From the IMG/VR virus record IMGVR_UViG_3300035661_000054: 64,000 nt of DNA; one strand, given 5' to 3'. Positions 15,222 to 53,228 of this stretch are shown piece after piece (the stretch's first letter is position 1; each line of letters begins with the position of its first letter). The notes beneath the pieces were generated by a model. The model was given only the letters and a program-made list of their open reading frames with translations. It did not search any database and was not told the origin of the DNA. Source of the DNA: a virus. A program made the position numbers and the translations under genes.

Positions 15222-15297
15222 TGCAGAGTAGTAGCAGTGGTAGCTCGTCAGCCTCATAAGCTGAAGGTCGGTGGTTCGAATCCATCCTCTGCGTCCA
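15222..15297 (+). tRNA. tRNA with anticodon CAT (Met elongator, initiator or lysidine-modified Ile2)
   Basis: Acceptor tgcagag/ctctgcg, anticodon arm tcagc-ctcataa-gctga perfect, T arm ggtgg-ttcgaat-ccatc. Confidence 0.8.
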
Positions 15298-15355
15298 AAA
15301 TATTTAGTTAGCTACAGTGATTCAATAATTATTGTAAAAATAATTATAAAAACTA

Positions 15356-15384
15356 TTGACAAATAGAAAAATATGTTTTATAAT
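15356..15384 (+). promoter_or_regulatory. sigma70-type promoter TTGACA-N17-TATAAT
   Basis: TTGACA 15356-15361, TATAAT 15379-15384. Confidence 0.55.
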
Positions 15385-15436
15385 TATTTTATGTTTTTGC
15401 TTAAGTTTTTAAGCGTTATTTTAAAGGAAGAAGAAA

Positions 15437-15562
15437 ATGAACAAAGCTCATATTAATTTTATTAGTGTTGATTTTACAGCTCAAGCTGTAAGCTTTGTTA
15501 CGCCTATGGAATTTGCTATGCCTCAAGCGCAGACTGAGATTAGCGAAAAAGGGACGGGTTGA
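15437..15562 (+). CDS. small ORF (41 aa, MNKAHINFISVDFTAQAVSFVTPMEFAMPQAQTEISEKGTG) with own promoter and terminator inside tRNA array
   Basis: RBS aaggaag 7 nt upstream of ATG; promoter 15356-15384; terminator 15590-15617; not in ORF track because <60 aa. Confidence 0.3.
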   Translation: MNKAHINFISVDFTAQAVSFVTPMEFAMPQAQTEISEKGTG

Positions 15563-15589
15563 TAATACTTCTTTAATTAGATTTTATTT

Positions 15590-15617
15590 AAAACCCGCCA
15601 TTAAAGCGGGTTTTTTT
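15590..15617 (+). terminator. rho-independent terminator
   Basis: aaaacccgccattaaagcgggttttttt. Confidence 0.7.
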
Positions 15618-15620
15618 ATA

Positions 15621-15690
15621 CCTTGATAAATAACAGCCTTTACGTGGCTTCAAGGATAAGTAGGATTAAAATCCGAAACTAATGTTATTA
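15621..15690 (+). repeat. inter-tRNA repeat element copy 5
   Basis: ccttgataaataacagcctttacgtggcttcaaggataagtaggattaaaatccgaaactaatgttattaaa. Confidence 0.8.
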
Positions 15691-15696
15691 AATCGT

Positions 15697-15772
15697 GGGG
15701 TTATGGTATAAATGGCTAACACAGTACCCTTGCAAGGTACAGTTCTGAGTTCGATGCTCAGTGGCTCCACCA
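15697..15772 (+). tRNA. tRNA-Ala (anticodon TGC) with G3-U70
   Basis: Acceptor ggggtta/tggctcc gives G3:U70 wobble; anticodon arm gtacc-cttgcaa-ggtac perfect; T arm ctgag-ttcgatg-ctcag. Confidence 0.8.
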
Positions 15773-15778
15773 AAAAAT

Positions 15779-15854
15779 TGTTTCTTAGCTCAGTTGGTAG
15801 AGCATTCGGCTGATAACCGAAAGGTCACTGGTTCAAATCCAGTAGAAACAACCA
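15779..15854 (+). tRNA. tRNA-Ile (anticodon GAT)
   Basis: Acceptor tgtttct/agaaaca, D arm gctc-agttggtag-agc, anticodon arm ttcgg-ctgataa-ccgaa. Confidence 0.85.
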
Positions 15855-15855
15855 T

Positions 15856-15931
15856 CAGTATGTAGGGAAGTTGGTATCCCACTTGATTTGGATTCAAGAG
15901 ATCGTAGGTTCGAGTCCTACCATACTGACCA
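15856..15931 (+). tRNA. tRNA-Pro (anticodon TGG)
   Basis: Acceptor cagtatg/catactg perfect, anticodon arm cttga-tttggat-tcaag, T arm gtagg-ttcgagt-cctac. Confidence 0.85.
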
Positions 15932-15938
15932 AAAATTT

Positions 15939-16015
15939 GTCTCCTTCGACTATGTTGGTTAGGTCATTACTCTCTCAGGGTGAAAAGATGGGATCGTCGC
16001 CCATAGGAGACTCCA
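15939..16015 (+). tRNA. tRNA-Glu variant (anticodon CTC)
   Basis: Acceptor gtctcct/aggagac perfect; anticodon arm ttact-ctctcag-ggtga; paralogue of Glu(TTC) at 16259; unusual T loop atcgtcg. Confidence 0.6.
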
Positions 16016-16022
16016 AATAAAT

Positions 16023-16099
16023 GGTTAATTAGCTCAGTTGGTTAGAGCGTTTCACTCATAACGAAAAGGTCGGTGGTTCAATTCCACCATTAACCACCA
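16023..16099 (+). tRNA. tRNA with anticodon CAT (second copy; Met or Ile2)
   Basis: Acceptor ggttaat/attaacc perfect; loop c-t-CAT-a-a; A31-C39 mismatch at base of anticodon stem. Confidence 0.75.
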
Positions 16100-16101
16100 A
16101 A

Positions 16102-16173
16102 CCTTGATGAATAACAGCCTTTACGTGGCTTCAAGGATAAGTAGGATTAAAATCCGAAACTAATGTTGTTAAA
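16102..16173 (+). repeat. inter-tRNA repeat element copy 6
   Basis: near-identical to copy 5. Confidence 0.8.
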
Positions 16174-16177
16174 TCGT

Positions 16178-16253
16178 GGGGTTATGGTATAAATGGCTAA
16201 CACAGTACCCTTGCAAGGTACAGTTCTGAGTTCGATGCTCAGTGGCTCCACCA
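16178..16253 (+). tRNA. tRNA-Ala (anticodon TGC), duplicate
   Basis: Identical to 15697-15772. Confidence 0.8.
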
Positions 16254-16258
16254 AAAAA

Positions 16259-16335
16259 GTCTCCTTCGACTATGTTGGTTAGGTCATCACCCTTTCAAGG
16301 TGAAGAGATGGGATCGTCACCCATAGGAGACGCCA
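16259..16335 (+). tRNA. tRNA-Glu (anticodon TTC)
   Basis: Acceptor gtctcct/aggagac; anticodon arm tcacc-ctttcaa-ggtga perfect. Confidence 0.75.
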
Positions 16336-16342
16336 AATAAAT

Positions 16343-16419
16343 GGTTAATTGGCTAAGTTGGTTAGAGTGTTTCACTCATAACGAAAAGGTCGGTGGTTCA
16401 ATTCCACTATTAACAACCA
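16343..16419 (+). tRNA. tRNA with anticodon CAT (third copy; diverged, G1-A72 mismatch)
   Basis: Same anticodon arm as 16023 copy; D arm changed (ggctaagttggttagagtg); 3' acceptor attaaca leaves position 1-72 unpaired. Confidence 0.6.
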
Positions 16420-16421
16420 AA

Positions 16422-16490
16422 CCTTGATGAATAACAGCCTTTACGTGGCTTCAAGGATAAGTAGGATTAAAATCCGAAACTAATGTTATT
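16422..16490 (+). repeat. inter-tRNA repeat element copy 7
   Basis: ccttgatgaataacagcctttacgtggcttcaaggataagtaggattaaaatccgaaactaatgttatt. Confidence 0.8.
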
Positions 16491-16493
16491 GAA

Positions 16494-16581
16494 GGAAGAT
16501 TGTCAGAGTGGTCTATTGTGCTTCTTTGCTAAAGAAGTGGGTTTAATCGCCCCACAGGTTCGAATCCTGTATCTTCCGCCA
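16494..16581 (+). tRNA. tRNA-Ser (anticodon GCT), long variable arm
   Basis: Acceptor ggaagat/atcttcc, anticodon arm cttct-ttgctaa-agaag, variable arm tgggtttaatcgcccca. Confidence 0.85.
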
Positions 16582-16583
16582 AT

Positions 16584-16657
16584 TCAGGGATCGTCTAATG
16601 GTAGGACACGAGACTTTGATTCTCGGTATTGTGGTTCGACTCCATGTCCCTGAGCCA
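16584..16657 (+). tRNA. tRNA-Gln (anticodon TTG)
   Basis: Acceptor tcaggga/tccctga perfect, anticodon arm cgaga-ctttgat-tctcg perfect. Confidence 0.8.
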
Positions 16658-16658
16658 T

Positions 16659-16733
16659 GTTTATTTAGCTTAATGGTAGAGCATTTCGTTTACACCGAAA
16701 GGGTTGGGGGTTCGAATCCCTCAAGAAACACCA
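16659..16733 (+). tRNA. tRNA-Val (anticodon TAC)
   Basis: Anticodon arm tttcg-tttacac-cgaaa, D arm gctt-aatggta-gagc, T arm ggggg-ttcgaat-ccctc. Confidence 0.75.
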
Positions 16734-16737
16734 ACTT

Positions 16738-16811
16738 GCCGCTTTAGTATAATGGCATTACAGTTGACTTGTAATCATCTGATCGCAGTTCGATTCTGTG
16801 AAGCGGCACCA
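16738..16811 (+). tRNA. tRNA-Thr (anticodon TGT)
   Basis: Acceptor gccgctt/aagcggc perfect; loop c-t-TGT-a-a; one U-U mismatch in anticodon stem. Confidence 0.7.
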
Positions 16812-16813
16812 AA

Positions 16814-16884
16814 CCTTGATGAATAACAGCCTTTATGTGGCTTCAAGGATAAGTAGGGTTAAAATCCGAAACTAATGTTATTAA
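16814..16884 (+). repeat. inter-tRNA repeat element copy 8
   Basis: ccttgatgaataacagcctttatgtggcttcaaggataagtagggttaaaatccgaaactaatgttattaatg. Confidence 0.8.
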
Positions 16885-16964
16885 TGGTGAAGTTATTGTA
16901 AAGATAGTATATTGTCTTTGAATAATCTGTTTAGATTTATAATTCCTAACTTCACCCTCAAATT

Positions 16965-17040
16965 GGTCTTGTAGTGTTAGCGGTAAGCACGTAAGCCTGT
17001 CACGCTTATAGGGTGGGTTCGAATCCCATCAAGATCGCCA
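16965..17040 (+). tRNA. tRNA-Asp (anticodon GTC)
   Basis: Acceptor ggtcttg/caagatc, anticodon arm taagc-ctgtcac-gctta perfect, T arm gtggg-ttcgaat-cccat. Confidence 0.8.
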
Positions 17041-17061
17041 GAATTTTAAAAAGGAAAAATT

Positions 17062-17205
17062 ATGGATAATTTAAATACAAATAACCCTTATAATAATCTA
17101 ACTCATGATGAGTTATTGGTTTTAGCGTCTTACTATGTTGATAAATTAGAGAAAACAATTAATAATATAGTTAACACTATTAAAAAAAATAACAATAAAT
17201 CATAA
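17062..17205 (+). CDS. small ORF (47 aa, MDNLNTNNPYNNLTHDELLVLASYYVDKLEKTINNIVNTIKKNNNKS)
   Basis: RBS aaaaaggaaaaattATG directly after tRNA-Asp. Confidence 0.3.
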   Translation: MDNLNTNNPYNNLTHDELLVLASYYVDKLEKTINNIVNTIKKNNNKS

Positions 17206-17370
17206 AATATTTTAATTAACTTTTTAGAAGTTAATGTAATGTTTTTTAGTTTGAACGTTGATTTTGGTTAAGTTAATGTTTTTAGGTATTGTGTTATTTG
17301 AAATTAATTCTCTAATATGGTATAATTAAGGAAAGGTAGATATTTTGCCTTTCCTTTTTTTGGGGGGATT

Positions 17371-18201
17371 ATGGAAGATTATATTAAAAGTTATAAAAAA
17401 AATAAATTAGGTAAAGATTATATTTGTGGTGATATTCATGGCAATAAAGACGAGTTAATGCTTTGTCTTAAAGAAATTAATTTTGATTTTAAAGCGGATA
17501 GATTGTTTTGTTGTGGTGATATAACTGATCGTGGAAGTGATGATTTTGGTTCTATGAGTCTTGTTTATGAGCCTTGGTTTTATTTTGTTTTGGGTAATCA
17601 CGAAAACATAATTGCTTCTCGTTTTTTTCGAAATGCTGAAGCTAATGGAACACTCTGGGCTTTAATGATTTCAGAAAATCCAGATTTATATCCAGAAGAA
17701 TATAAAGCTTTATCATCTTATATTGATTTTATTAGAAAAGCTCCACTTTGTATCGAATTGGAAACGGATAATGGTTTAATTGGTATTTCTCATTCTTACA
17801 CTGATGATTCTTGGTATAAAGTATTAAAACAATCTAAACTTGATTATGAATTAATTAATAAAAATGGTTATAAATTTTTTGAATGCTTAATGTTTTGGGA
17901 TAGAAGAATTAAAATTCCAAAATATCAAGATTATTTGAAAAAAAATCCTATTGATGGTGTTGATTATATTTTTCATGGTCATACTATTATGTATAGCGGA
18001 AATAAAACAATACCAAAAGCTTTTGCTAATCATGTTTATATTGATACTGGATTTTTTTTAGGAAATTGGAAAAGTTCTTTATTTAGAGGAAATTTTACTA
18101 TTTACGATGTAAGTGATGAATTATTTAATTTATTTACAGTTGATTTCAGAATGAAAAAAGTTTATAATAATATTTTAAATTTTTATGATATTTTGCAGTG
18201 A
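17371..18201 (+). CDS. PPP-family serine/threonine protein phosphatase (lambda-phosphatase/ApaH-like)
   Basis: GDIHGN (GDxHG), GDITDRGSD (GDxxDRG), GNHE motifs in canonical order and spacing. Confidence 0.7.
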   Translation: MEDYIKSYKKNKLGKDYICGDIHGNKDELMLCLKEINFDFKADRLFCCGDITDRGSDDFGSMSLVYEPWFYFVLGNHENIIASRFFRNAEANGTLWALMISENPDLYPEEYKALSSYIDFIRKAPLCIELETDNGLIGISHSYTDDSWYKVLKQSKLDYELINKNGYKFFECLMFWDRRIKIPKYQDYLKKNPIDGVDYIFHGHTIMYSGNKTIPKAFANHVYIDTGFFLGNWKSSLFRGNFTIYDVSDELFNLFTVDFRMKKVYNNILNFYDILQ

Positions 18202-18211
18202 GGTGTTTCTT

Positions 18212-18988
18212 ATGTTTAAGTCTTTTTTATTTTTATTGTCATTTTTATTTGTCCAAATCTCTTATGCTGGTTATGAAGAACTATATTCAAAAGAGCAATT
18301 AAGTAATAATTTAAAATCGTGTTCTGGTTTGTTTTTTAATTCTAAATCTGAAGAATTAAAAAATAAAATAAATTCAAAAAATATATTTGGGTATTGTTCT
18401 GATGAGTTTGGTGTTATTTATAGTGGTGAAACAAAAACCCCATTAGTTGTTTTTGAAAAGCTTAACAAACAAAAACTAAAAGAAGGTGGCGAGGAAAGAA
18501 CGGATAATTTTTATTCAGATCCAAGAATTAAGAGTAATTTTTCAGCAAATTTAAGTGATTACAAGAATTCTGGTTATGATCGTGGTCACATGTTTCCAGC
18601 AGCTGACTCAAGTACACCTAATGCTATGGCGCAAAGCTTTTCTTTAAGTAATGTTGTTCCTCAAAACCCACAAAATAATAGAAAAATATGGAGTAAAGTT
18701 GAATCAGATGTTAGAAAATTTGTATCACGCTCTAATGGTGATTTTTATATTGTAACTGGTGTGCTTTTTAAAGATAAGAATCAAAAAGTAATTGGAGATA
18801 ATGTTTATGTTCCAAGTCATTTATATAAAATTGTATATAATGATCAAACAAAAAGATCAATGGTTTTTTTAACTGAAAACTCTGAGAAAGGTAATCCCTT
18901 TCCGCCAATTTCTCTCGATGAGTTTGATAAAATGTTGACAGATGATAAATTTCATAGTAATATTAAATATAGTTTAATTTTTAAATAA
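18212..18988 (+). CDS. secreted DNA/RNA non-specific endonuclease (EndoG/Serratia NucA family)
   Basis: Signal peptide MFKSFLFLLSFLFVQISYA; active-site DRGHMFP (DRGH motif) and downstream N..P motif; ATG at 18212 with RBS tgaggtg preferred over track start 18185. Confidence 0.7.
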   Translation: MFKSFLFLLSFLFVQISYAGYEELYSKEQLSNNLKSCSGLFFNSKSEELKNKINSKNIFGYCSDEFGVIYSGETKTPLVVFEKLNKQKLKEGGEERTDNFYSDPRIKSNFSANLSDYKNSGYDRGHMFPAADSSTPNAMAQSFSLSNVVPQNPQNNRKIWSKVESDVRKFVSRSNGDFYIVTGVLFKDKNQKVIGDNVYVPSHLYKIVYNDQTKRSMVFLTENSEKGNPFPPISLDEFDKMLTDDKFHSNIKYSLIFK

Positions 18989-18999
18989 GGAGTTTTAAA

Positions 19000-19194
19000 A
19001 TGAGTGGAGTAAGGCGTGTATCAACACCAGAGCCAACAAAAGAAGAAATTTTAGAAGCTATTTCTATTATTGAAAAAACAATAAAAGAAGAAGAAGCTAT
19101 TTTAAATGATAAAGCCATTCTTGACTTGATTGATAAAAGCAAAACAGAAAGAAAATTTAGTTTATTAAAGTGGAGAGATTCTTCTAATGATTAA
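19000..19194 (+). CDS. hypothetical protein
   Basis: 64-aa ORF with RBS aaggagttttaaaATG. Confidence 0.35.
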   Translation: MSGVRRVSTPEPTKEEILEAISIIEKTIKEEEAILNDKAILDLIDKSKTERKFSLLKWRDSSND

Positions 19195-19558
19195 AATTAT
19201 TTCTTTTCTTTTTTTATTTAGTTTTTTAGGATTAGCTCAAGCAAGTAGTTATAGTGAAATAATTAAAGCAACTTTTTCTGTTGGTGGCTTATGTTATCAA
19301 GTAACTGACAGAACCTCTCAATCTTTTAAAGACGCAGACTTGAACAGGGTTAAATCTTGTTTCTTTTTAAAAGATATGGATAGAAGGGGATGTGATAATA
19401 AATCTTGTGGTGATTTAGAGAGTTGGTCTAAAGATAAAACTTGGTTTACAAAAGAATCTTACGCTGATTGGGATGCTATGGCTGAAGAAAAATTATTCAA
19501 TTCTCGTTCTAAGGGTAGAGAATTACTTCAGGAGCAAATCAATAAGGTTGGTAAATAA
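19187..19558 (+). CDS. secreted Cys-containing protein
   Basis: Signal peptide MIKIISFLFLFSFLGLAQA; 6 Cys; overlapping start/stop with neighbours (operon). Confidence 0.45.
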   Translation: MIKIISFLFLFSFLGLAQASSYSEIIKATFSVGGLCYQVTDRTSQSFKDADLNRVKSCFFLKDMDRRGCDNKSCGDLESWSKDKTWFTKESYADWDAMAEEKLFNSRSKGRELLQEQINKVGK

Positions 19559-20007
19559 TGTATCAAAATCTTGCAAATGAATACAAGCTAAAAGTTATTT
19601 CTTTTATTTTATTTTTTAGAAATTATTTTTTAACCTCTCTTCTTTTTATTTGCGCAATTCCTTTTTTGATAATTTTGTTGGATTCAAGTATTAAATCTAA
19701 TCAAAATACTTACTTTTTTATCTGTTTTTATGCTTTCTTTTTGATTGTTTTTTATTTTATGTCAACTTGGAGTTTTTGGAATTATTTATTGAAAAATTAT
19801 AATCATTTTAACAAATATAATTATGATGAGTTTTTTAAAAAAAGGATGAAAGAAGAGTATTTAAGAAATAAAGTATTTGTAAATATTCCAGTGTTAATGC
19901 ATTTTGTAGCAATGGAAAAAGCTTATATTGAATCAGAAAAAGAAAAAGCATTTGAAAGAAATCTTAAAAATTTAGAAGAAAAAGAATTACCAGAATTTTT
20001 AAGGTAG
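19558..20007 (+). CDS. membrane protein (2-3 TM)
   Basis: Hydrophobic N-terminal half, ATGA overlap with upstream gene. Confidence 0.4.
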   Translation: MYQNLANEYKLKVISFILFFRNYFLTSLLFICAIPFLIILLDSSIKSNQNTYFFICFYAFFLIVFYFMSTWSFWNYLLKNYNHFNKYNYDEFFKKRMKEEYLRNKVFVNIPVLMHFVAMEKAYIESEKEKAFERNLKNLEEKELPEFLR

Positions 20008-20231
20008 AAGCAAGGATACTGAATAACAAAATATCTCACCGTCAAAATAGAAATGTTTTGTTTAGCTTGTCGATATGTTGTTTTTGATTTTTTAAATAAA
20101 AGAAATATGTTTTACATATATTGACTTTATGGTGTTAATGGTGTTAATATCTGATTGCGTAACAATCAAGTACAAAGAAAACAGAAAAATAAATTCTTTC
20201 TGTTATTTTAAATTTAAGAGGTGTTTTTAAA

Positions 20232-23372: not shown

Positions 23373-23377
23373 TTTTA

Positions 23378-33514: not shown

Positions 33515-34633
33515 ATGAATATCAATGACATGAAGTTAGCTTTAGAGCGTGAAGAAATTCGAGTTCGTAATGAAACTGTGGATGGTGTTAATTTATCTAT
33601 TGTTTCTTATATGGTAGCAACTCCTGATTTATGGGATGTTGAAAATGCATTGGAGGCTCGTGGCATTACTTTTGACGAAAATGGTAATTGTGTTGCTCGT
33701 ACTATGGAAAAATTCTTTAATGTTGGTGAAAATAAATACACTCAACTTTCTGAATCTGATTTTTTAGGTTCTTATGTTTTTGATAAGCTTGATGGTTCTA
33801 TGATTTCCGTTGTTATGATTAATGGAAAATTATTTGCTAAAAGTAAGAAGTCTTTTTATTCCGATGTTGCTTTAATGGCTCAAAAATTTATTGATATTAA
33901 TCAGAATTATCAAGAATTTTGTAGAAGAATTATTGGTTCTGGTTATACTCCTACATTTGAGTTTGAATCTCCTGATGCTCAAATTGTAGTAGAACAAAAA
34001 GAAGAAAAAATGACTTTGCTTTTGGTTAGGGATATTGAAAGTGGAAAATATCTTGAATTTGATTGTTTAGTAAATTTGGCTAAAGAGTACAATATTCCTG
34101 TTGTAAGTGGCATGTGTTTTGATGATTTTTATAATCGTTTTTTGGTTTCTCAAGATGAAAACTTTTTAGATTTTTTACGAAAAAATGTAAAAGATGTTGA
34201 AGGTTGGGTTTTCTTGTTATCAACTGGACAACGTGTTAAATTAAAAACTGATTGGTATTTGTTGCGTCATCGTTTAACTTCTTATCATGAGAGAAATATT
34301 TTTGATTTAATTATTAATGAAGAGATTGATGATATTATGCCTTTGATTGAGAAAAAAGATGGTGCTGTTGATATTGTTAATCAAATTGGTCATCGTATTG
34401 CTCATTTTTATAAAGTTACTATGGATGAAACTATTGGTTTAGTTAATTTATGGAAAGAACAAGGTTTATCTTTATCTGAGATTGGTAAAAATTACTCAAA
34501 TAATATTTATTTTGGTTTAGCGATCAAATTATTCAAAGAACAAGAGCCAGATTATAAAAAATTTATTGTCAATACTTACCGTAAGGATTTCCACACTAAA
34601 TCTGTTTTTTGGGGTTTTGATACTGATTCCTAA
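33515..34633 (+). CDS. rnlA: RNA ligase 1 (T4 RnlA-like)
   Basis: CVARTMEKFFNVGEN vs T4 IASRPMEKFFNLNEN; LDGSMISVV vs EDGSLVSTY; PTFEFESPDAQIVV...KMTLLLVRDIESGKYLEFD vs T4 ANFEFVAPTNRIVL...KIILLNVRENETGEYISYD. Confidence 0.8.
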   Translation: MNINDMKLALEREEIRVRNETVDGVNLSIVSYMVATPDLWDVENALEARGITFDENGNCVARTMEKFFNVGENKYTQLSESDFLGSYVFDKLDGSMISVVMINGKLFAKSKKSFYSDVALMAQKFIDINQNYQEFCRRIIGSGYTPTFEFESPDAQIVVEQKEEKMTLLLVRDIESGKYLEFDCLVNLAKEYNIPVVSGMCFDDFYNRFLVSQDENFLDFLRKNVKDVEGWVFLLSTGQRVKLKTDWYLLRHRLTSYHERNIFDLIINEEIDDIMPLIEKKDGAVDIVNQIGHRIAHFYKVTMDETIGLVNLWKEQGLSLSEIGKNYSNNIYFGLAIKLFKEQEPDYKKFIVNTYRKDFHTKSVFWGFDTDS

Positions 34634-37012: not shown

Positions 37013-38707
37013 ATGCAAAAATTAAATTCACAGATTTTAATGTCTGCGGACAGTTACAAATTAACACATGTCGATCAAATTATTGAGGGGACTACTCATA
37101 TTTATGAGACTTTTACTCCTCGAAGTCTAAAACATTTACCAAAAGAAGTTAAAGAACTTACAAATAATAAAATTATTTGGTTTGGTTTTCAGTCAACTAT
37201 CAAAATGATTCATGATAAATTTCAAGAAGAATTTTTTTCTAAAAATTATGATGAAGCTGTGCATTACTTTCTAAGTCAAGTAGGATTTTTTACTGGTGGT
37301 TCTTACGATGATTCTCATATTTATGAATTACACAAGCTTGGGTATTTACCGATTAAAGTAAAATCTCTTGAAGAAGGTAGTTTGGTTAATGTAAAAATCC
37401 CATGTATGACCATTATTAATACTGTTCCAGGCTATGCTTGGTTGGTTGGCTATCTTGAAACTATTTTATCGAATGAAACATGGAAATCTACCACTAATGC
37501 AACCATTGCTTTTGCTTATCGTAAATTGTTTACAAAGGCAGCTATGGAAACAGTTGGTAATGATGAGTTCGTTAAATGGCAAGGTCATGATTTTTCAGCC
37601 CGTGGTATGTCTGGATCGGCTGATGCTTCAAAACAAGGAATGAGCCATTTGACCTCGTTTTTTGGTTCTGACGCTTTTGGAAGTATGTTACCTATTAGTT
37701 ACTATTATAATGAAAGTATTAATAATTTCATTGCTGGTTCTATTAGAGCTTCTGAACACATGACAGAAACATTAGCTATTCAGGTTTTAGCAAAAAAACA
37801 CAATGTTGATTTAGATGAAGCTGAATATATGCAAATGAAGCGATTGATAACTGAGGTTTACCCTACAGGTATTGTTGCTCGTGTTTGTGATTCTTATGAT
37901 TATTGGAATGTTGTAACAAATATTATTCCGAGATTAAAAGAAGATATTATGAATCGTGGACAAGATTCTAAGGGTTTTTCAAAAGTTGTAATTCGACCAG
38001 ATTCAGGTGAACCTGTAGATATTATTTGCGGTACTGCTATTCCTGTTTTTACATTAACAGATGTTGAGCGTTGGTTTAAAGAAAACAAACATAAAGAATC
38101 TCAAATCTTTGTAAAAATTGATGGTAATAATGTGGCTCATTATATGAATTGTGAAGTAACTGAAAATGGTATTGTTACTAATGAAATTCCTTCTAATAAA
38201 GTTACAGCAGAAATGAAAGGTACTGTTTCTTGTTTATGGGAAATTTTTGGTGGTACAATAACTGAAAAAGGTTATAAACTACTTGATAATCATATTGGTA
38301 TGATTTATGGTGATTCAATCACTATTAAAAGAGCTGAAGAGATTGTTTTTCGTTTAAAAATGAAAGGCTTTGCTTCTATTAATACTTTGCTTGGTATCGG
38401 TTCTTATACATACCAAATGGTTAGTAGGGATACGCTTGGTATGGCTTTAAAGGCGACCTTTGCTATTGTTGATGGTCAAGAAATTGATTTAAATAAAAAC
38501 CCAAAAACAGATGATGGAACAAAAAAATCTGCAAAAGGAAGAGTAAGGGTTGAAAAAAATAATTCAGAATATGTTTTATTTGATCAGCAAAGTGAACAAG
38601 AAGAAGCTGGTGGATTATTAAGAATTGTTTATTGTGATGGTAAATTCTTAAATCAACAAACTTTTTCTGATATTAGAACAATTATTGATTCTAATGTTTT
38701 GTTGTAA
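37013..38707 (+). CDS. nadV: nicotinamide phosphoribosyltransferase family protein (NadV/NAMPT-like; alternatively NARP1 Namat-like)
   Basis: NAMPT family hallmark VIRPDSGEPVDII and overall type II phosphoribosyltransferase organisation; 564 aa is longer than canonical NAMPT. Confidence 0.8.
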   Translation: MQKLNSQILMSADSYKLTHVDQIIEGTTHIYETFTPRSLKHLPKEVKELTNNKIIWFGFQSTIKMIHDKFQEEFFSKNYDEAVHYFLSQVGFFTGGSYDDSHIYELHKLGYLPIKVKSLEEGSLVNVKIPCMTIINTVPGYAWLVGYLETILSNETWKSTTNATIAFAYRKLFTKAAMETVGNDEFVKWQGHDFSARGMSGSADASKQGMSHLTSFFGSDAFGSMLPISYYYNESINNFIAGSIRASEHMTETLAIQVLAKKHNVDLDEAEYMQMKRLITEVYPTGIVARVCDSYDYWNVVTNIIPRLKEDIMNRGQDSKGFSKVVIRPDSGEPVDIICGTAIPVFTLTDVERWFKENKHKESQIFVKIDGNNVAHYMNCEVTENGIVTNEIPSNKVTAEMKGTVSCLWEIFGGTITEKGYKLLDNHIGMIYGDSITIKRAEEIVFRLKMKGFASINTLLGIGSYTYQMVSRDTLGMALKATFAIVDGQEIDLNKNPKTDDGTKKSAKGRVRVEKNNSEYVLFDQQSEQEEAGGLLRIVYCDGKFLNQQTFSDIRTIIDSNVLL

Positions 38708-39690: not shown

Positions 39691-40695
39691 ATGAAGGCAT
39701 ATATCACTATTGGAGTTTCAGCTTCAGGTAAAACAACCTGGACTAATCAATTTTTAAAAAACCATGAAATGCTTTTAAAATCAGGAAAATCTTCTGGTGT
39801 TTATTGTAATATTAATTTTGATGAAATCAGGGCTTTGGTTTTGGTTGAAATGGGTATTATAAAATCTATTGAGGATTTTTCTTGGGATTTATGGAATCTA
39901 AAATACGAAAAAGCCATGTCTAAAAAAGCAAAATATATTTTTGATAATGCTGTCGCACAGGGTTGTTTTATTATTTTGTCTAATACAAACCTAAATAAAG
40001 ATAATCTTATTGCCAAAACAAAAGAGCTTGAATCTTTAGGTTATTCTGTTGAGTGGGTTTATTTTGATATTTCTTATGATGAAGCTTTGAAACGTGATGC
40101 TGGTCGTAAAAATGGTGTTGGTGCTTATGTTATTCGTAAACAATGGAAAAGCTATCTTGAGTTGAAGAGTAAAAGTTTTGTAGTTGAAAATGCTAAATAT
40201 ATATCTTCACTTTGCTCAGTTCAGGCTATTGAACCTTATGTTTTTTCTGATGAAAAAACAGAAGCTTTGATGTTTGACATTGATGGTACTATTGCCAATA
40301 TGGTTGACAGAAGAGCTTATGATTGGGATAAAGTTGGTCAAGATAAGCCAGATTTTGTTATGCAAATTTTAATTGACGGTTGGCTTTCTTTGGGTAAAAA
40401 AATCGTTTTCCTTAGTGGTCGTGATGGTCAATGTTATAAAGAAACTAAAGAATGGATTTTAAAGTATTTTTCAAAAGTTGATTTTGATAAAGAAAAAGGA
40501 AATTCAGTTCTTTTCATGCGTGAACATCAAGATATGAGAAAAGATTATATTGTAAAAAAAGAAATTTTTGATAATAAAGTTAGAAATTCTTATAATATTA
40601 TTGCTGTTTTTGATGATCGTCCTCAAGTGGTTAGGATGTGGCATGATTTAGGTTTAAAAGTTTGGTCTACTGGCGATCAGTTAATTGATTTTTAG
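39691..40695 (+). CDS. pseT: polynucleotide 5'-kinase / 3'-phosphatase (T4 Pnk-like)
   Basis: N-terminal P-loop GVSASGKTTW kinase domain; C-terminal HAD-type phosphatase with FDIDGT (DxDGT) motif. Confidence 0.8.
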   Translation: MKAYITIGVSASGKTTWTNQFLKNHEMLLKSGKSSGVYCNINFDEIRALVLVEMGIIKSIEDFSWDLWNLKYEKAMSKKAKYIFDNAVAQGCFIILSNTNLNKDNLIAKTKELESLGYSVEWVYFDISYDEALKRDAGRKNGVGAYVIRKQWKSYLELKSKSFVVENAKYISSLCSVQAIEPYVFSDEKTEALMFDIDGTIANMVDRRAYDWDKVGQDKPDFVMQILIDGWLSLGKKIVFLSGRDGQCYKETKEWILKYFSKVDFDKEKGNSVLFMREHQDMRKDYIVKKEIFDNKVRNSYNIIAVFDDRPQVVRMWHDLGLKVWSTGDQLIDF

Positions 40696-46105: not shown

Positions 46106-46162
46106 CTTAAAAAGTCTTTTGGGTTAAAATACAACAAAGAAACTAATGAAAGGTGATGTATA

Positions 46163-46888: not shown

Positions 46889-46904
46889 TTTTTGGGTAAA
46901 ATAT

Positions 46905-48116: not shown

Positions 48117-48125
48117 AAATAAAAA

Positions 48126-48154
48126 AACCCAAATAGACAAGTCTGATTTGGGTT
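48126..48154. terminator. bidirectional terminator between convergent gene blocks
   Basis: aacccaaatagacaagtctgatttgggtt. Confidence 0.6.
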
Positions 48155-48161
48155 AAATGTA

Positions 48162-48407
48162 TTAACCATGAATATATTCTTTTTTCATGGTTGAAAAAAT
48201 TTGTTCTAATTCTTCATTAGAAACAAAATTTATTCGTTTTTGTTTTAGAACTTTTCCATTGCGGACAATGGAAATGACAAAAAAGGAGCCATTTCTGGCT
48301 ACCTCAACAGATGAGTTACGCATCTGGAAAGCCCTATAAAGGCTTAGAAAAAAATTGTTCATGATAATATATCCTAAAATTAAAGATAAAAATATAAAAT
48401 AGCACAA
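48162..48407 (-). CDS. hypothetical protein
   Basis: 81-aa ORF, first gene of minus-strand block. Confidence 0.3.
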   Translation of the reverse strand: MCYFIFLSLILGYIIMNNFFLSLYRAFQMRNSSVEVARNGSFFVISIVRNGKVLKQKRINFVSNEELEQIFSTMKKEYIHG

Positions 48408-48446
48408 AAAAATAATTGTTTTATTTTTAAGTGCTATATTTTTAAA

Positions 48447-48782
48447 TTAATCAACTAAAGTTAGTAGGTGAAAAGAAATAGAACCATGATATTCTAAAGT
48501 AGAACCATCATTATCTATGACATTAGTATCTGATTTTAACAAATCAGTATTTAAGTCAGAGATATTGACAGAAAAAACAATAATATCTTCAGTCCATTCT
48601 TCTTCAACTTCAGTGCATTCAGCATAACTTAAAGCAACATCATAGGATGTCGCTAAATAAGTTACACCTTCAACAGAGTCGTTAAAGTTTTTCTCTCCTA
48701 AACCATTTAAACCGTATTTTTGAATACTATCTAAATGTTTTCTGAAAGTTGCATGAAAAAGTTTCATTTTACTGTAATCCAT
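48447..48782 (-). CDS. hypothetical protein
   Basis: 111-aa ORF. Confidence 0.4.
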   Translation of the reverse strand: MDYSKMKLFHATFRKHLDSIQKYGLNGLGEKNFNDSVEGVTYLATSYDVALSYAECTEVEEEWTEDIIVFSVNISDLNTDLLKSDTNVIDNDGSTLEYHGSISFHLLTLVD

Positions 48783-48832
48783 ATTTCAACCAATTTCAGT
48801 TCTTAAATATCCATAACAATTTAAAAAATCCT

Positions 48833-49024
48833 TTAAATTGAAACGATTCCAAGAACGTAACCTTTGAAAACAACATGAAACTTATCAAAATTATCTGAAA
48901 CATTTAACAGAAAAATATTTTCTGATAATTGTTCTTTATTTTTGTTTAAAGCCTTCATGTCACGGCAAGATTTTAAAATAATATCTTTCATTTTATTCAC
49001 CTTGTTCTGAATAGTCGTTAGCAT
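48833..49024 (-). CDS. hypothetical protein
   Basis: 63-aa ORF. Confidence 0.3.
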   Translation of the reverse strand: MLTTIQNKVNKMKDIILKSCRDMKALNKNKEQLSENIFLLNVSDNFDKFHVVFKGYVLGIVSI

Positions 49025-49202
49025 ATTTAAAGGCTTGTTTTAAGCCTTCTTCATTTAAATTAACTAAACCGTCATTGCATCCATCTGGAGTTCTTAATTC
49101 AATATAAGAATCAGCAGGAATACCAAAGAATGAATAACCATTTGATAAGGAAATGCTTCCACCTTGTTTTAGAATTTCTAAAACGCTATTTGTAAATTCC
49201 AT
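48993..49202 (-). CDS. hypothetical protein
   Basis: 69-aa ORF. Confidence 0.35.
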   Translation of the reverse strand: MEFTNSVLEILKQGGSISLSNGYSFFGIPADSYIELRTPDGCNDGLVNLNEEGLKQAFKYANDYSEQGE

Positions 49203-49221
49203 AGGGGTTTCTCCTAAAAAT

Positions 49222-49578
49222 TTAATTTAAACGATTTGTTTTAATTTTGAAAGTAACCCCTTCATTAGGGATTAACTCAAAATCACGACTCTTTTGAACA
49301 ATTGATTTAAAATAACCAGATCCTAAATCAAAGTCGTAAGATTCTCCAAACCACATTTTTCTGTGTTTCCAGCAAATGAAAACACGAATTTTATTGTTGG
49401 TATTGAAAAAACAAAATCCTTTATAATTTATTTTTTTCGCAGCTCCAACTGTATAAATACGATTGGAAGCTATTTGACGAATCAAACCTTCCTTGGTTTT
49501 GCTTTTATATTCATTACTTGGTGTAATAAGCAAGTGAGTTTTTATTTCAATCATTTTTTCAATCCTTTTGACGAACAA
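49222..49578 (-). CDS. hypothetical protein
   Basis: 118-aa ORF. Confidence 0.4.
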   Translation of the reverse strand: MFVKRIEKMIEIKTHLLITPSNEYKSKTKEGLIRQIASNRIYTVGAAKKINYKGFCFFNTNNKIRVFICWKHRKMWFGESYDFDLGSGYFKSIVQKSRDFELIPNEGVTFKIKTNRLN

Positions 49579-49702
49579 ATACTCGGAATTTTCATACTAA
49601 TCGTATCGCTGTTTAAAAATAAACTCGATAAACTTTAGCTTCTTTTTCCTTGTAATTTAAAACATTTTTACGAAGTGTAGAAGGTTTATTAATCCACGCT
49701 AT

Positions 49703-49894
49703 TCAATTCTCTTTAGAGAAATGTTTTTGTAAAAACGAAATATCATACCAATCCATTGTTCTTGAACCGAAATCAATAAGAACTTTATCTTTATCAACTT
49801 GAGTTACTTGAACTTTAGCACCTTTTGAAAGTGAAAAGGATTCGTATCCCGCAATGAAACGCTGTTCATGTTTTAAAACATAAATACCTTTCAT
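49703..49894 (-). CDS. hypothetical protein
   Basis: 63-aa ORF. Confidence 0.35.
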   Translation of the reverse strand: MKGIYVLKHEQRFIAGYESFSLSKGAKVQVTQVDKDKVLIDFGSRTMDWYDISFLQKHFSKEN

Positions 49895-49905
49895 TATAAT
49901 CTCCT

Positions 49906-50562
49906 TTAAAGCATTTTATCCATTTCTGCCATGATTCTCATAGCTGGAGTTGATTTAATCATTTCTTCAAAATATTGACGACAAATACTGTGAGTTTTAT
50001 CATCCATTTTAAAGCCTTTTGAAATTGAAAAACGATACGCTCTCATAATTCTGAGTTTGTCTTCATTTATTCTGTCTTTAGCTTTTCCTACAAATCTGAG
50101 CTTTTTAGATTTAATATCTTCCAAACCCAAACCAGTAGGATCAATTATTTTATCATTTACTATATCGTAATACAAAGCATTAACTGTAAAGTCTCTGCGA
50201 TTAGCATCATCAAATATAGTGCCTATTGAAGTTGAATCAGGTCTCCTACCATCGGTATAAGTACCATCTTTTCGATATAAAGCAATTTCAAACTGTTGTT
50301 CGTTCTTACTTACAATCATAACAAGAAAGTTTTTTCCTGCTTCATTTACTTGCCAGTTGTTTGAGGCGAAAGCCTCTTTAATATCATCAAGATTTCCATT
50401 GCAAACAATGTCAAAATCTTTAATTTTATGACTTTCTTTATGATAAAGATTGGTTAAATAATCTCTAACACAACCACCAACCAACATAACCTCTGATGAA
50501 CAACTTTTTAAAATTAAAAAAAGTTGTAAAAGAGTGTTATTTTTTTCGATTGTTTCTATCAT
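49906..50562 (-). CDS. cca: tRNA nucleotidyltransferase (CCA-adding enzyme) head domain protein
   Basis: GGCVRD, DFDIV (DxD), RRDFTVNALYYD signatures of class II Pol-beta CCA-adding/poly(A) polymerase head; only 218 aa. Confidence 0.75.
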   Translation of the reverse strand: MIETIEKNNTLLQLFLILKSCSSEVMLVGGCVRDYLTNLYHKESHKIKDFDIVCNGNLDDIKEAFASNNWQVNEAGKNFLVMIVSKNEQQFEIALYRKDGTYTDGRRPDSTSIGTIFDDANRRDFTVNALYYDIVNDKIIDPTGLGLEDIKSKKLRFVGKAKDRINEDKLRIMRAYRFSISKGFKMDDKTHSICRQYFEEMIKSTPAMRIMAEMDKML

Positions 50563-50573
50563 AGAAACCTCTT

Positions 50574-50822
50574 TTAAAAAACAAGCTTTGATTCAAAAAA
50601 GCAAAGTTCTTTATTTAGATTATACTTATCTAAAGGATCAGTCATTAAAACAATATAGCGTCTTTCACTATATTGTTGAGTAGGTGAATCAATTACTTCC
50701 TCACCAACGATAACGCCTGAACCAACACCTGGAGCTGTACACTTAAAACCGTTTAGTTTTGAACCAACGATTTTTGTGTCATTTACTGGTTTTTTCATAT
50801 TTTTCTCCTTAGAAAAATTCAC
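50574..50822 (-). CDS. possible GroES/Cpn10-like co-chaperonin
   Basis: KPVNDTKIVG...GVGSGVIVG pattern resembles GroES; weak. Confidence 0.3.
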   Translation of the reverse strand: MNFSKEKNMKKPVNDTKIVGSKLNGFKCTAPGVGSGVIVGEEVIDSPTQQYSERRYIVLMTDPLDKYNLNKELCFFESKLVF

Positions 50823-51216
50823 TTTTAGAAATTAGACAGGTAAACTCAATATTTTTCTCACTTAATAGCGAACAAAAATAATTAATTTTAGCCAAGGATT
50901 TCTCGCTAACTACTTCAGATTTTAAACAAACTAAAGAAGGTTTTTGAGATTCAATAAATTCAGCAAGCTTTAATATTAATTTATTCATAGAACCAAGACC
51001 TCTAAAGTCTGTTTTAGTATAAATAAAGTCAATATTTAATTCAAGTATGCCAAAATTATCAATTAAAGAAAAGACAAGAAATGAATGTTTGTTTTCTAAA
51101 AGAAAAGCATTTTCATTTCCCATTAACATGTAAGAAGGTATAATATCACCGATCTCTGAAAGATCAATTTTATCATCCAACTTATCAATTAAGAAAGCGT
51201 TAAGCTTAATAGGCAT
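50809..51216 (-). CDS. possible GNAT-family acetyltransferase
   Basis: TKTDFRGLGSMNKLILKLAEF resembles GNAT motif A (R/Q-x-x-G-x-G/A). Confidence 0.35.
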   Translation of the reverse strand: MPIKLNAFLIDKLDDKIDLSEIGDIIPSYMLMGNENAFLLENKHSFLVFSLIDNFGILELNIDFIYTKTDFRGLGSMNKLILKLAEFIESQKPSLVCLKSEVVSEKSLAKINYFCSLLSEKNIEFTCLISKSEFF

Positions 51217-51362
51217 ATAGCCTCCTAAAAAACTGATTAACAGTTATAAATTTAAAAATTTAATTATATATTTAAATTGTTTTAGCATAAATATTAAATC
51301 GATTTTTTTTTAATTAATTAAGTTTTTAATATTGATTTTTTTTGTGATATAAATTAAACTTA

Positions 51363-51391
51363 TTGACTTTTAAAAAAACTTATGATATAAT
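51363..51391 (+). promoter_or_regulatory. sigma70-type promoter TTGACT-N17-TGaTATAAT
   Basis: TTGACT 51363-51368, TGATATAAT 51383-51391. Confidence 0.6.
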
Positions 51392-51421
51392 AAGATATTA
51401 TTTTTAAAGGAGGTTTTTTTA

Positions 51422-51691
51422 ATGTTGTTTTTTAATTGGGTATTGTTTGGGGTTTCAATACTTATTGCTCTTTCTGTTTTTGTTTCTGGTTCTTATTACG
51501 TAGTAACTCATAATGGAGTTTTACTTTTTGCTTTCATGGTTCCAATATTTTTACTTATTTCTTTTATTACTTTTATCTCAATGGTGCTTTTTAGTAACGC
51601 AGTTTTTTCTATTTTCTCTAAAAGAAAATTAAATCCTAATCTAATGTTGTATTGTTTAGATAGAACAATTTCTGTTATTCGTTCAAAATAA
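51422..51691 (+). CDS. small membrane protein (3 TM)
   Basis: 89-aa hydrophobic ORF behind strong promoter; RBS aaggaggtttttttaATG. Confidence 0.4.
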   Translation: MLFFNWVLFGVSILIALSVFVSGSYYVVTHNGVLLFAFMVPIFLLISFITFISMVLFSNAVFSIFSKRKLNPNLMLYCLDRTISVIRSK

Positions 51692-51744
51692 CTATTGACA
51701 AACATTATTTGGTTTGTTATACTTATATCAAATGGTTGTGGTCT

Positions 51745-52037
51745 TAAGACATAGTTAAATATTTTTAAGCATCTGGAAGGCGGTTCGATTCCGCCCATCT
51801 CCACCAAAAAATATATTGTTTAGTATGTTTTTTAATGGGGATGACCAGGTTTCGACAGGTGTGTTAAGGGTATTGATGACAACTTCGCAAGGTGGAAGCG
51901 ATCTCTCTATGAGAAAAGAAACAAAAAAATAAATGCAAACGACGAAAACTTTGCTATTGCAGCTTGATACTGCTTGGGTTTGAGATACCTCTAAACAGAA
52001 CATCTCAATCGAACCTTACCTAACGGTAAGGTTTTTT
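51745..52037 (+). ncRNA. ssrA: tmRNA (ssrA), apparently circularly permuted two-piece form
   Basis: Acceptor piece ends 51806 with T arm ggcgg-ttcgatt-ccgcc, 3' acceptor catctcc, A, CCA. Coding piece starts 51837 with ggggatgaccaggtttcgacagg (GGGGnUGA..GGnUUCGACGGG tmRNA 5' consensus), pairs with G3-U70. Tag ORF 51935-51967 is gcaaacgacgaaaactttgctattgcagcttga (ANDENFAIAA-stop). Terminator 52011-52037. 5' boundary of acceptor piece uncertain. Confidence 0.6.
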
Positions 52038-52042
52038 AATTA

Positions 52043-52119
52043 GCACAGGTGTCAGAGTGGTCTATTGAGGTGGATTGCAAATCCATTGTTCAGCGGTTCG
52101 AATCCGCTCTTGTGCTCCA
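52043..52119 (+). tRNA. tRNA-Cys (anticodon GCA)
   Basis: Acceptor gcacagg/cttgtgc, anticodon arm gtgga-ttgcaaa-tccat, T arm agcgg-ttcgaat-ccgct, 3' tcca. Confidence 0.75.
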
Positions 52120-52193
52120 AATTTTCTAAGTCTTTGACTTTTCTTCCTTATTTTGTTAAAATATACTCATTGATTGATTGAGGTATAATTAAA

Positions 52194-53228
52194 GTGTCTA
52201 ATGTTTTTATGATGATTTCTGGTGGAATTGATTCTATGGTTTTAGCTCAATATTATGTTAATAATGGTATTGAATTTAAAGCTATTTTTATTGATGATTC
52301 AGAATATTCTAAAGGTGTTTGTTCTAAAAATGTTGTGGAATTATTTTGTCAAAAAAACAATATTAAATTGTATCAAAAAAAATATGTTAAAAATAAAAAC
52401 GGAAACAATAACCTTGAAGCGAATATGAGAGATTTTAGATATAATTTTGCTTTTGAAGTTATGGCTGGTTTTGAAAATCCTATCTTAATTACAGCTCATC
52501 ATTTAAATGATCGTGTTGAAACAATGCTAATGAATTTTGTTAGAGGTTCTGGTGTTTTAGGATTGAGTAATATGAATGAAATTGAATCTAAAAACAAAGG
52601 TTTTAATTATCAGCATCATCGTCCTTTTATTAATAAATCAAAAAATGAAATTAAATTAATGGCTAATGAATACGGATTTATTGAAAATATTCATTATGTT
52701 GAGGATTTAACTAATAATGATACTGATATTACAAGAAACTGGTTTCGTCATAATGTTGTTAATAAAATTATGAGTGAATTTTCTCATAAAGGTATTTCTC
52801 GTAGCTTTGAGCTTCTTTCTCAAGAAAGTGTTGATTTAAATAATTTAAAAATTAACTTAGAAGATGGTTATATTTGTAGTGATTTTATTGATATGAATTG
52901 CATTAATAAAAGTCAGGTTTATTATTTGGCTAAAAAGTTTTTTGAAAAATCTGGTATTGCTTTTACAAAAAAAGGTGCGGAGTTGTTTGCATGGCTCATT
53001 TTTAACGGAAAGGAATTTTCTTTAAGAAGTAAAAATGGTGACATTCAATTTGGTTTTACTATTATTTCTAATGAAGAATCAAATGATGATTTTGAATCAA
53101 ATAAGTTTATTAAAGTTTTTGCAATTAATAAAAATGAAAAACAAGAGTGTAAGCAAAAATTTGATCAACATACAAAATATCTGTATGTTTCACCAAAATT
53201 AAGATTTTACAATATTAATATCTATTAA
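52194..53228 (+). CDS. tilS: tRNA(Ile)-lysidine synthetase TilS-like PP-loop ATPase
   Basis: N-terminal PP-loop ISGGIDS (SGGxDS), HHLNDRVETMLMN downstream as in TilS/MesJ N-domain; 344 aa. Confidence 0.65.
   Translation: MSNVFMMISGGIDSMVLAQYYVNNGIEFKAIFIDDSEYSKGVCSKNVVELFCQKNNIKLYQKKYVKNKNGNNNLEANMRDFRYNFAFEVMAGFENPILITAHHLNDRVETMLMNFVRGSGVLGLSNMNEIESKNKGFNYQHHRPFINKSKNEIKLMANEYGFIENIHYVEDLTNNDTDITRNWFRHNVVNKIMSEFSHKGISRSFELLSQESVDLNNLKINLEDGYICSDFIDMNCINKSQVYYLAKKFFEKSGIAFTKKGAELFAWLIFNGKEFSLRSKNGDIQFGFTIISNEESNDDFESNKFIKVFAINKNEKQECKQKFDQHTKYLYVSPKLRFYNINIY

Follow-up and report, generated by a model that had tools for sequence, protein, structure and literature searches.

A TilS-like gene without the CTD2 domain and three CAT-anticodon tRNAs in a large AT-rich phage

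The DNA examined here is a stretch of 64,000 nucleotides (the window) of IMG/VR record IMGVR_UViG_3300035661_000054, from a large, AT-rich phage with a G+C content of about 29%. An open reading frame (ORF) at 52194-53228 (+) encodes a protein which is, by its sequence, a homolog of the lysidine synthetase TilS, with an intact PP-loop catalytic domain and without the C-terminal domain CTD2. The same strand carries three tRNA genes with the anticodon CAT, namely CAT1 (15222-15297), CAT2 (16023-16099) and CAT3 (16343-16419). A preliminary description of this DNA had suggested that one of these tRNAs was a tRNA-Ile2, so that the phage would supply both the modification enzyme and its substrate for the decoding of AUA. 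The enzyme half of this proposal is supported, and the phage protein is most likely an active type II-like lysidine synthetase. The tRNA half is not supported, with no recognisable tRNA-Ile2 among the three.

A TilS enzyme would adenylate C34 of a CAU-anticodon tRNA and replace its 2-oxo group with lysine, after which the lysidinylated tRNA would read AUA and be charged by isoleucyl-tRNA synthetase (IleRS) rather than methionyl-tRNA synthetase (MetRS). In this phage, CAT1 appears to be of initiator type, CAT2 of elongator Met type and CAT3 a decaying copy of CAT2. Since no CAT tRNA is recognisable as tRNA-Ile2, the substrate would probably be a tRNA-Ile2 supplied by the host or by a gene beyond the window. 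The interpretation adopted here, with about an even chance of being correct, is that the gene provides a short type II-like lysidine synthetase within a translation toolkit, its substrate lying in the host or beyond the window.

The TilS-like protein

The ORF encodes 344 aa, comprising a PP-loop catalytic domain (approximately residues 1-200), a CTD1-like region and an orphan tail. Its GTG start codon is supported by a 95%-identical relative, which has ATG at the same position. The PP-loop motif SGGIDS, already noted in the preliminary description, occupies residues 9-14. Assignment to TilS is now backed by the curated NCBIfam model for the TilS N-domain (TIGR02432, equivalog-domain), which scores 135.2 bits over a cut-off of 93.6, and by a match to Pfam PF01171 (E = 1e-36). 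QueC, TtcA and MnmA, which had been named beforehand as competing PP-loop families, all scored far under their respective cut-offs, as did ThiI, NcsA and GMP synthase. Only three sequence matches were obtained in the PDB, all of them TilS (1ni5, 1wy5, 3a2k). In an alignment of 26 sequences including the query, every column invariant across the 25 TilS homologs is kept in the phage protein (S9, G10, G11, D13, S14, R82, H102, D106, E109, T110, P144, D171, N174, R181 and R185), and the TilS-specific motifs beyond the PP-loop, HHxxDxxET, RP, EDxSN and RNxxRH, are likewise present. The nearest cellular TilS shares 36% identity with it, over the N-domain.

The C-terminal half is less readily characterized. 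The AlphaFold (AF2) model has a mean predicted local distance difference test score (pLDDT) of 69.5, with a confident N-domain, values of 59-68 for residues 230-272 and values below 50 for residues 273-344. The best Foldseek matches of this model were the TilS proteins of E. coli, Aquifex aeolicus and G. kaustophilus, over 300-330 columns, with the type II enzyme of A. aeolicus giving the best target coverage (TM 0.66, about 310 columns). In TilS, CTD1 binds the anticodon stem and elbow and comes after a long linker helix. The predicted CTD1-like region has three helices (residues 180-217, 239-253 and 259-271) plus a hairpin (274-289), modelled at a pLDDT of only 48-68; it aligns with TilS structures over about 310 columns and has no sequence-family match. 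Pfam likewise detects PF01171 alone in P0035, a cellular short TilS from a tol-pal/ftsH neighbourhood, so a CTD1 to which Pfam is silent is not unusual. The alignment against TilS that the preliminary description had called for, including the C-terminal domains, shows that the protein stops before CTD2, and no match to TilS_C/CTD2 (PF11734) was found in the ORF even at E <= 1. It is because of this absence that the phage protein is referred to as type II-like. When the C-terminal 155 aa were compared by HMMER with 1.84 billion representative proteins, no credible homolog emerged; three matches were rejected, each of them being made up of several stretches of a protein of 1,200-2,200 aa.

The gene is under purifying selection. 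Against the 95%-identical relative, the ratio of nonsynonymous to synonymous change (dN/dS) is 0.16; the N-domain taken by itself gives 0.15 and the C-terminal part 0.18.

The three CAT-anticodon tRNAs and AUA usage

All three CAT tRNAs were recovered exactly where they had been described by both ARAGORN and the Rfam tRNA model (gathering score 29 bits), the latter scoring CAT1 at 51.6, CAT2 at 70.8 and CAT3 at 51.8 bits. The isotype labels of ARAGORN were rejected as evidence; its "Met" label is uninformative because known Ile2 genes receive it too, E. coli ileX and ileY, the T4 Ile tRNA and the CF8 Ile2 all being called "Met". Two surrogate classifiers were used instead, a position-specific log-odds profile and a pair of covariance models, R1 for Ile2 and R2 for Met. 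Both were trained on a small and bacterial set of 10 tRNA-Ile2 and 10 elongator tRNA-Met from ten phylogenetically diverse bacteria (PMC12514573 supplement).

In leave-one-out trials, the profile separated all 20 training sequences, the Ile2 members ranging from +1 to +39 bits and the Met members from -7 to -43 bits. CAT1, CAT2 and CAT3 obtained -28.6, -29.3 and -30.5 bits respectively. The Ile2 controls scored +25.4 (an E. coli prophage Ile2), +21.6 (MIJ3_b, from Pseudomonas phage vB_PaeM_MIJ3), +15.9 (CF8 Ile2), +4.0 (T4 Ile) and +1.4 (MIJ3_a, from the same phage as MIJ3_b). With the covariance models, the Ile2 score minus the Met score was -20.7 bits for CAT1, -5.4 for CAT2 (81.6 for Ile2, 87.0 for Met) and -6.1 for CAT3. 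E. coli metT gave -7.8 and the E. coli initiators about -10 to -15. The seven known or likely Ile2 controls lay on or near the Ile2 side, with differences from -0.3 to +10.8 bits: ileX +10.8, ileY +10.6, the E. coli prophage Ile2 +7.9, MIJ3_b +7.6, T4 Ile +4.6, CF8 Ile2 +2.0 and MIJ3_a -0.3. The tRNA-Ile(GAU) of the window scored +4.7.

Only one base pair, 5:68, was fully diagnostic in the training set, being Y:R in all 10 Ile2 and R:Y in all Met; the five phage and prophage Ile2 controls are also Y5:R68. This agrees with the acceptor pairs 3:70, 4:69 and 5:68 singled out by Silva et al. (PMC1635315). All three CAT tRNAs show the Met state at this pair, with A5:U68 in CAT2 and CAT3 and G5:C68 in CAT1. 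At position 3, where G or A rather than C is a feature of Ile2, CAT2 and CAT3 have U3:A70 and CAT1 has C3:G70. A Silva-type difference ratio for CAT2 was 1.05, compared with leave-one-out values of 1.01-1.39 for Met and 0.62-0.92 for Ile2, which points in the Met direction as the classifiers do but by a small margin. Sequence neighbors of CAT2 by identity or BLAST were mixed, with tRNA-Ile(GAU) and tRNA-Met and even tRNAs annotated as Thr or Cys among them, and were judged less reliable than the trained classifiers. Both classifiers and the 5:68 pair thus speak against the suggestion that one CAT tRNA is a tRNA-Ile2, and the outcome named in advance as contrary to it, that all three would be Met or fMet, is nearly what the surrogate classifiers return.

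CAT1 looks like an initiator tRNA. Its closest sequences are GAP32_b and E. coli metZ, as well as the initiator-like tRNAs of GAP32-type and KVP40-type phages. Bacterial initiators are marked by an A11:U24/G12:C23 D stem and a 1:72 mismatch. In CAT1, a U1.G72 wobble takes the place of a C x A mismatch, position 73 is U and the D stem is irregular; the D arm (AGCAG..GGUAGCUCG) matches that of metZ, but an extra U disturbs the stem. Its anticodon stem pairs are A29:U41, G30:C40 and C31:G39, so that one of the three G29-31:C39-41 pairs of initiators is present in that orientation.

CAT2 is probably an elongator tRNA-Met in function, judging from its sequence. Its cloverleaf is full except for an A31xC39 mismatch, with G1-C72 and A73, and U3:A70 stands in place of the usual Met pair C3:G70, as in B. 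burgdorferi tRNA-Met. The anticodon loop CUCAUAA and A73, which CAT2 and CAT3 share, fit Ile2 but are common to some tRNA-Met and do not discriminate. CAT3 looks like a decaying tandem copy of CAT2. It lies within a 235-nt tandem duplication (94% identity) and retains the anticodon arm of CAT2, while five substitutions produce a G1xA72 mismatch, seen in the sequence and in the ARAGORN cloverleaf and already remarked upon in the preliminary description, and a weakened D stem, with the fall in Rfam score from 70.8 to 51.8 bits. The sole unambiguous Ile tRNA of the window is tRNA-Ile(GAU) at 15779-15854 (+; ARAGORN, Rfam 76.3 bits), which reads AUU and AUC.

The CAT tRNAs are also present, in identical form, in JGI contigs L028-L030, which span the array and come from the strain of the window or from one 98.6% identical to it.

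AUA, which had been expected to be frequent in a genome of this composition, is not frequent in the window. It occurs at 13.9 per 1000 codons (61 ORFs, 15,669 codons) and makes up 17% of Ile codons, compared with 76% for AUU. The figure is roughly threefold that of E. coli (4.9) but well under that of bacteria of similar G+C content, with 39.0 per 1000 reported for B. burgdorferi and 20.9 for M. penetrans (Table S4, PMC12514573). Nor does the share of 17% exceed the 19-38% of A-ending codons in the Val, Gly, Ala, Thr and Pro families. The demand for AUA decoding is real, though not exceptional.

Comparison with other phages and candidate substrates

TilS genes have been reported previously in phages, namely the Pseudomonas jumbo phages vB_PaeM_MIJ3/PA5oct and the Ralstonia jumbo phage RsoM2USA. 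In MIJ3/PA5oct, a TilS of 203 aa consisting of the N-domain only is encoded 7-10 kb from three upstream tRNA(CAT) genes (PMC6892783). Like the phage of the window, these are AT-rich phages in which TilS accompanies three tRNA(CAT), one initiator-like and two forming a related pair. The enzymes share 31% identity, and that of MIJ3 lacks a counterpart to the 140-aa C-terminal region of the protein described here. The tRNA pairs also differ. That of MIJ3 resembles ileX in the anticodon arm and carries C5:G68, and one of its members is clearly Ile2 by both profile and covariance scores, whereas the pair of the window scores as Met type. RsoM2USA encodes a TilS of 349 aa (ORF84) along with tRNAs identified by tRNAscan-SE 2.0 for every amino acid but Ile (PMC8504454). 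The two phages are alike in the length of TilS, in a PP-loop domain as its only detectable domain, and in having many tRNAs without a recognised tRNA-Ile2. However, the identity between the two proteins (29%) is confined to the N-domain, their C-terminal sequences are unrelated, and RsoM2USA is without any tRNA-Ile, whereas the window has tRNA-Ile(GAU). In the published accounts of TilS in these few jumbo phages, no activity test was found.

In its N-domain followed by a CTD1-like region and no CTD2, the protein resembles type II TilS (A. aeolicus 1wy5/2e21, M. smegmatis and the SAR11-like P0035). It differs from these bacterial enzymes in being phage-borne, in its identity of 23-29% and in its last ~70 residues, which are without a counterpart and whose predicted structure is of low confidence. 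Phage T4 presents the reverse of the arrangement in the window, with a tRNA-Ile(CAU) but no TilS, as opposed to a TilS but no recognisable tRNA-Ile2. According to its record annotation, the T4 gene specifies an isoleucine tRNA, which has C5:G68 and scores on the Ile2 side. This tRNA depends on the TilS of the host. As in T4, the tRNAs would be supplied for codons used more by the phage than by its host. In a 642-kb uncultured phage, a TilS-like match occurs with tRNA-Ile(UAU) and tRNA-Ile(GAU) within 20 kb. Both patterns thus occur among phages, some pairing TilS with a clear Ile2 and others not. No TilS match was obtained in the phages with the CAT tRNAs closest to CAT1 and CAT2 (GAP32, CBB, XbC2, Erwinia and KVP40-like phages). 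As such tRNAs are found in tRNA-rich phages lacking a TilS match, their mere co-occurrence with tilS is unremarkable, and the CAT1 and CAT2 tRNA types evidently work without a phage TilS. Nor are the CAT tRNAs tightly linked to tilS, as 36 kb separates them.

A tRNA-Ile2 beyond the window is conceivable, as tRNAs for Arg, His and Phe are also absent from the 64 kb and a relative has a tRNA-His at the edge of its array. Several points weigh against a host or external substrate. It is hard to see why a phage would bring a TilS but no substrate tRNA of its own, as the host already has an essential TilS, and in MIJ3/PA5oct the enzyme is accompanied by two tRNAs with anticodon arms matching those of E. 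coli ileX. The tRNA set of the window is rich in U34 tRNAs for A-ending codons, and a reader of AUA would be in keeping with it. Measured by simple identity, CAT2 comes closest to certain phage tRNA-Ile(GAU) genes (0.81 to that of Weasels2), its mean identity being 0.72 to Ile(GAU), with a small and mostly phage-derived reference set, as against 0.66 to Met and 0.63 to Ile2; its best E. coli match is a tRNA-Ile. The class given to the CAT tRNAs comes from surrogate classifiers trained on few bacterial sequences, and a TilS devoid of CTD2 would not read the acceptor stem, the site of much of the signal that distinguishes Met from Ile2.

Such considerations lead to the main alternative, a rather unlikely one that modifies the proposal of the preliminary description, in which CAT2 would be a phage tRNA-Ile2 of non-canonical form, perhaps together with CAT3. 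The CTD2-less TilS would ignore the Met-like acceptor stem and lysidinylate C34, and IleRS would charge the product through L34-A35-U36, A37, A38 and A73, giving a private AUA decoder that classifiers trained on bacteria call Met. The presence of a TilS under selection is consistent with this, as is its lack of CTD2, which is expected to relax discrimination at the acceptor stem. A CTD2-deleted TilS of B. cenocepacia loses that discrimination and accepts a C3:G70 variant, yet it still rejects tRNA-Met (PMC11947777), so that the same experiment counts on both sides. CAT2 has C32, A37, A38 and A73, as do 10/10 Ile2, and lacks the C3:G70 found in 9/10 Met, and the similarity to phage tRNA-Ile(GAU) (81%), the pairing of TilS with duplicated Ile2-like tRNAs in MIJ3, the preference of the tRNA set for A-ending codons and the short TilS of RsoM2USA in the company of no recognised tRNA-Ile all lean the same way. 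On the other hand, both classifiers put CAT2 and CAT3 on the Met side, A5:U68, G26, G50 and C30:G40 of CAT2 are Met states, a 77% identical tRNA with A5 (GAP32_a) occurs in a phage without a TilS match, and the tilS and CAT genes stand far apart. A somewhat fainter prospect again is that enzyme and tRNA form a private pair, with the CTD2-less TilS turning the Met-type CAT2 and CAT3 into AUA-reading, Ile-accepting tRNAs built on a scaffold that the host TilS would reject; the logic of such a pair might also explain RsoM2USA.

It is improbable that the TilS-like protein has drifted from its ancestral role, to modify another tRNA or RNA, to take on a regulatory role such as that reported for B. 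subtilis TilS-HprT, or to persist as an inert, recently acquired host gene. The C-terminal 155 aa without credible homologs, the last 70 residues modelled at a pLDDT <50, the distance of the N-domain from any cellular TilS and the lack of a recognisable substrate tRNA in the window would suit such a history. Against it stand the retention of all TilS-invariant residues, a dN/dS that is low in the C-terminal part too, a TIGR02432 score over the curated cut-off and a gene order kept in a diverged relative, while the low G+C content and phage-like codon usage of tilS speak against recent capture. An active type II-like lysidine synthetase acting on a host tRNA-Ile2, or on one encoded elsewhere in the phage genome, accordingly remains our working interpretation.

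Genomic setting and implications

Within the window, the order permuted tmRNA, tRNA-Cys, tilS and membrane protein is kept in a diverged relative. A sigma-70-like promoter match (TTGACT-17-TAAAAT with TG; 52134-52162, +), assigned by consensus match only, lies upstream of tilS and this stretch is conserved in relative L026. The tRNA-Cys(GCA) between the tmRNA and tilS (52043-52119, +; ARAGORN, Rfam 57.8 bits) is kept in L025 and L026. At 12 nt past tilS is a gene for a multi-pass membrane protein (53240-53848, +) with a weak PnuC/nicotinamide mononucleotide (NMN) transporter match (PF04973, 24 bits, under the cut-off of 27.3), which adjoins the 3′ end of tilS in L025 and L027 also.

Directly upstream of tRNA-Cys and tilS is a permuted two-piece tmRNA (51709-52036, +; ARAGORN, RF01850 131 bits, RF04321 112 bits) with the tag ANDENFAIAA. 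Its acceptor piece ends ...CCGCCCAUCUCCACCA at 51807 and its coding piece begins GGGGAUGACCAGGUUUCGAC at 51837. The tmRNA has a strong sigma-70-like promoter to itself (51695-51723), and its terminal hairpin shows compensatory changes in a relative, where the tag is ANDKNFAIAA. The tag ANDENFAIAA was found in 3 of 185,579 species genomes, namely two Legionella metagenome-assembled genomes (MAGs) and one gammaproteobacterial MAG, in which it sits in ordinary one-piece tmRNAs otherwise without sequence similarity. The shared tag is a possible clue to the host, the Legionella MAGs providing no more than a lead.

ARAGORN identified 24 tRNAs and one tmRNA in the window, 23 of the tRNA genes forming an array at 12634-17040 (+; ARAGORN, Rfam) that has mostly U34 or G34 anticodons and was built up through tandem duplication. 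The array is also present in L028-L030. A pseudo-tRNA-Lys remnant (25.9 bits) is located at 13504-13561 (+), and the 98.6%-identical strain has a callable tRNA-Lys (L028 2753-2824) where the window has this decayed remnant. With this remnant and the decay of CAT3, gene birth and decay appear to be ongoing in the array. A ~90%-identical relative was reached via the flanking phosphoesterase; its contigs end at the array edge and only tRNA-His and tRNA-Asp were seen. In a distant relative (86% identity in the flanking phosphoesterase; L033 34-106), a tRNA-His that is not in the window stands beside tRNA-Asp. tRNA content thus differs among close relatives.

Between the tRNA genes are seven copies (+) of an element of ~80 nt, at 13395-13474, 14110-14189, 14561-14640, 15615-15694, 16096-16175, 16416-16495 and 16808-16887. 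Its predicted fold is a two-tier hairpin (CCUUGA..AGCC-loop-GGCU..UCAAGG) together with a second small hairpin, with three pairs maintained via changes on both sides, and Rfam gave no match. The element may act as a signal for processing or be a small stable RNA comparable to T4 rnaC/rnaD, or it may represent the unit by which the array was duplicated. ARAGORN also called tRNA-Glu (CTC and TTC) at 15939-16015 and 16259-16335 (+), directly upstream of CAT2 and CAT3 within the duplicated unit. The Rfam tRNA model was silent for both even at E <= 1, and the UUCRANY motif that is canonical for the T loop is missing from theirs (GGGAUCGUCGCCC); these may be tRNAs of atypical form, or else false calls. 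An ORF of 41 codons with a good ribosome-binding site (15437-15562, +), identical in three JGI metagenome contigs, is situated in the array, after CAT1 and before the next repeat, with a terminator-like hairpin downstream of it. A sub-threshold Rfam Trp_leader match just 3′ of this ORF (15554-15619) probably reflects that hairpin.

The translation and tRNA-maintenance toolkit of the window comprises, besides the 24 tRNAs, the permuted tmRNA and TilS, a CCA-adding enzyme head domain (49906-50562, -), a T4-type polynucleotide kinase-phosphatase (39691-40695, +; AAA_33 and HAD_PNKP), an Rnl1-type RNA ligase (33515-34633, +) and a second RNA ligase (62599-63672, +; PF09414), all identified by family matches. 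The tRNA repair and maintenance set is complete and T4-style, which suggests that the phage expects tRNA-cleaving defences of its host. NAD salvage is represented by a nicotinamide phosphoribosyltransferase (37013-38707, +; family match) and the weak PnuC-like NMN transporter. Other auxiliary genes typical of phages encode PhoH/PIN, a RecD2-like helicase, glutathionylspermidine synthase, dCMP deaminase and dihydrofolate reductase. No close relative of the window was found among GenBank phages or in IMG/VR, where TilS peptide patterns, the neighbouring exonuclease, a CAT2 35-mer and the 80-nt repeat retrieved none, and a scan of JGI metagenomes with the 80-nt repeat also returned no relatives.

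This locus represents a third and very divergent lineage of phage TilS, with at most 36% identity, an orphan C-terminus and no CTD2. It provides a usable contrast between MIJ3, whose TilS comes with clear Ile2-type tRNAs, and the phage of the window and RsoM2USA, whose TilS proteins come without them, and it bears on the question of why a phage duplicates an essential host enzyme and which tRNA it targets. Should the host tRNA-Ile2 be the substrate, tilS would be an ordinary auxiliary gene boosting AUA decoding. Activity on Met-type CAU tRNAs would instead reveal how type II TilS enzymes choose their substrates, a question left open in PMC11947777, and the conversion of a Met-type tRNA would mean that phages can re-assign tRNA identity.

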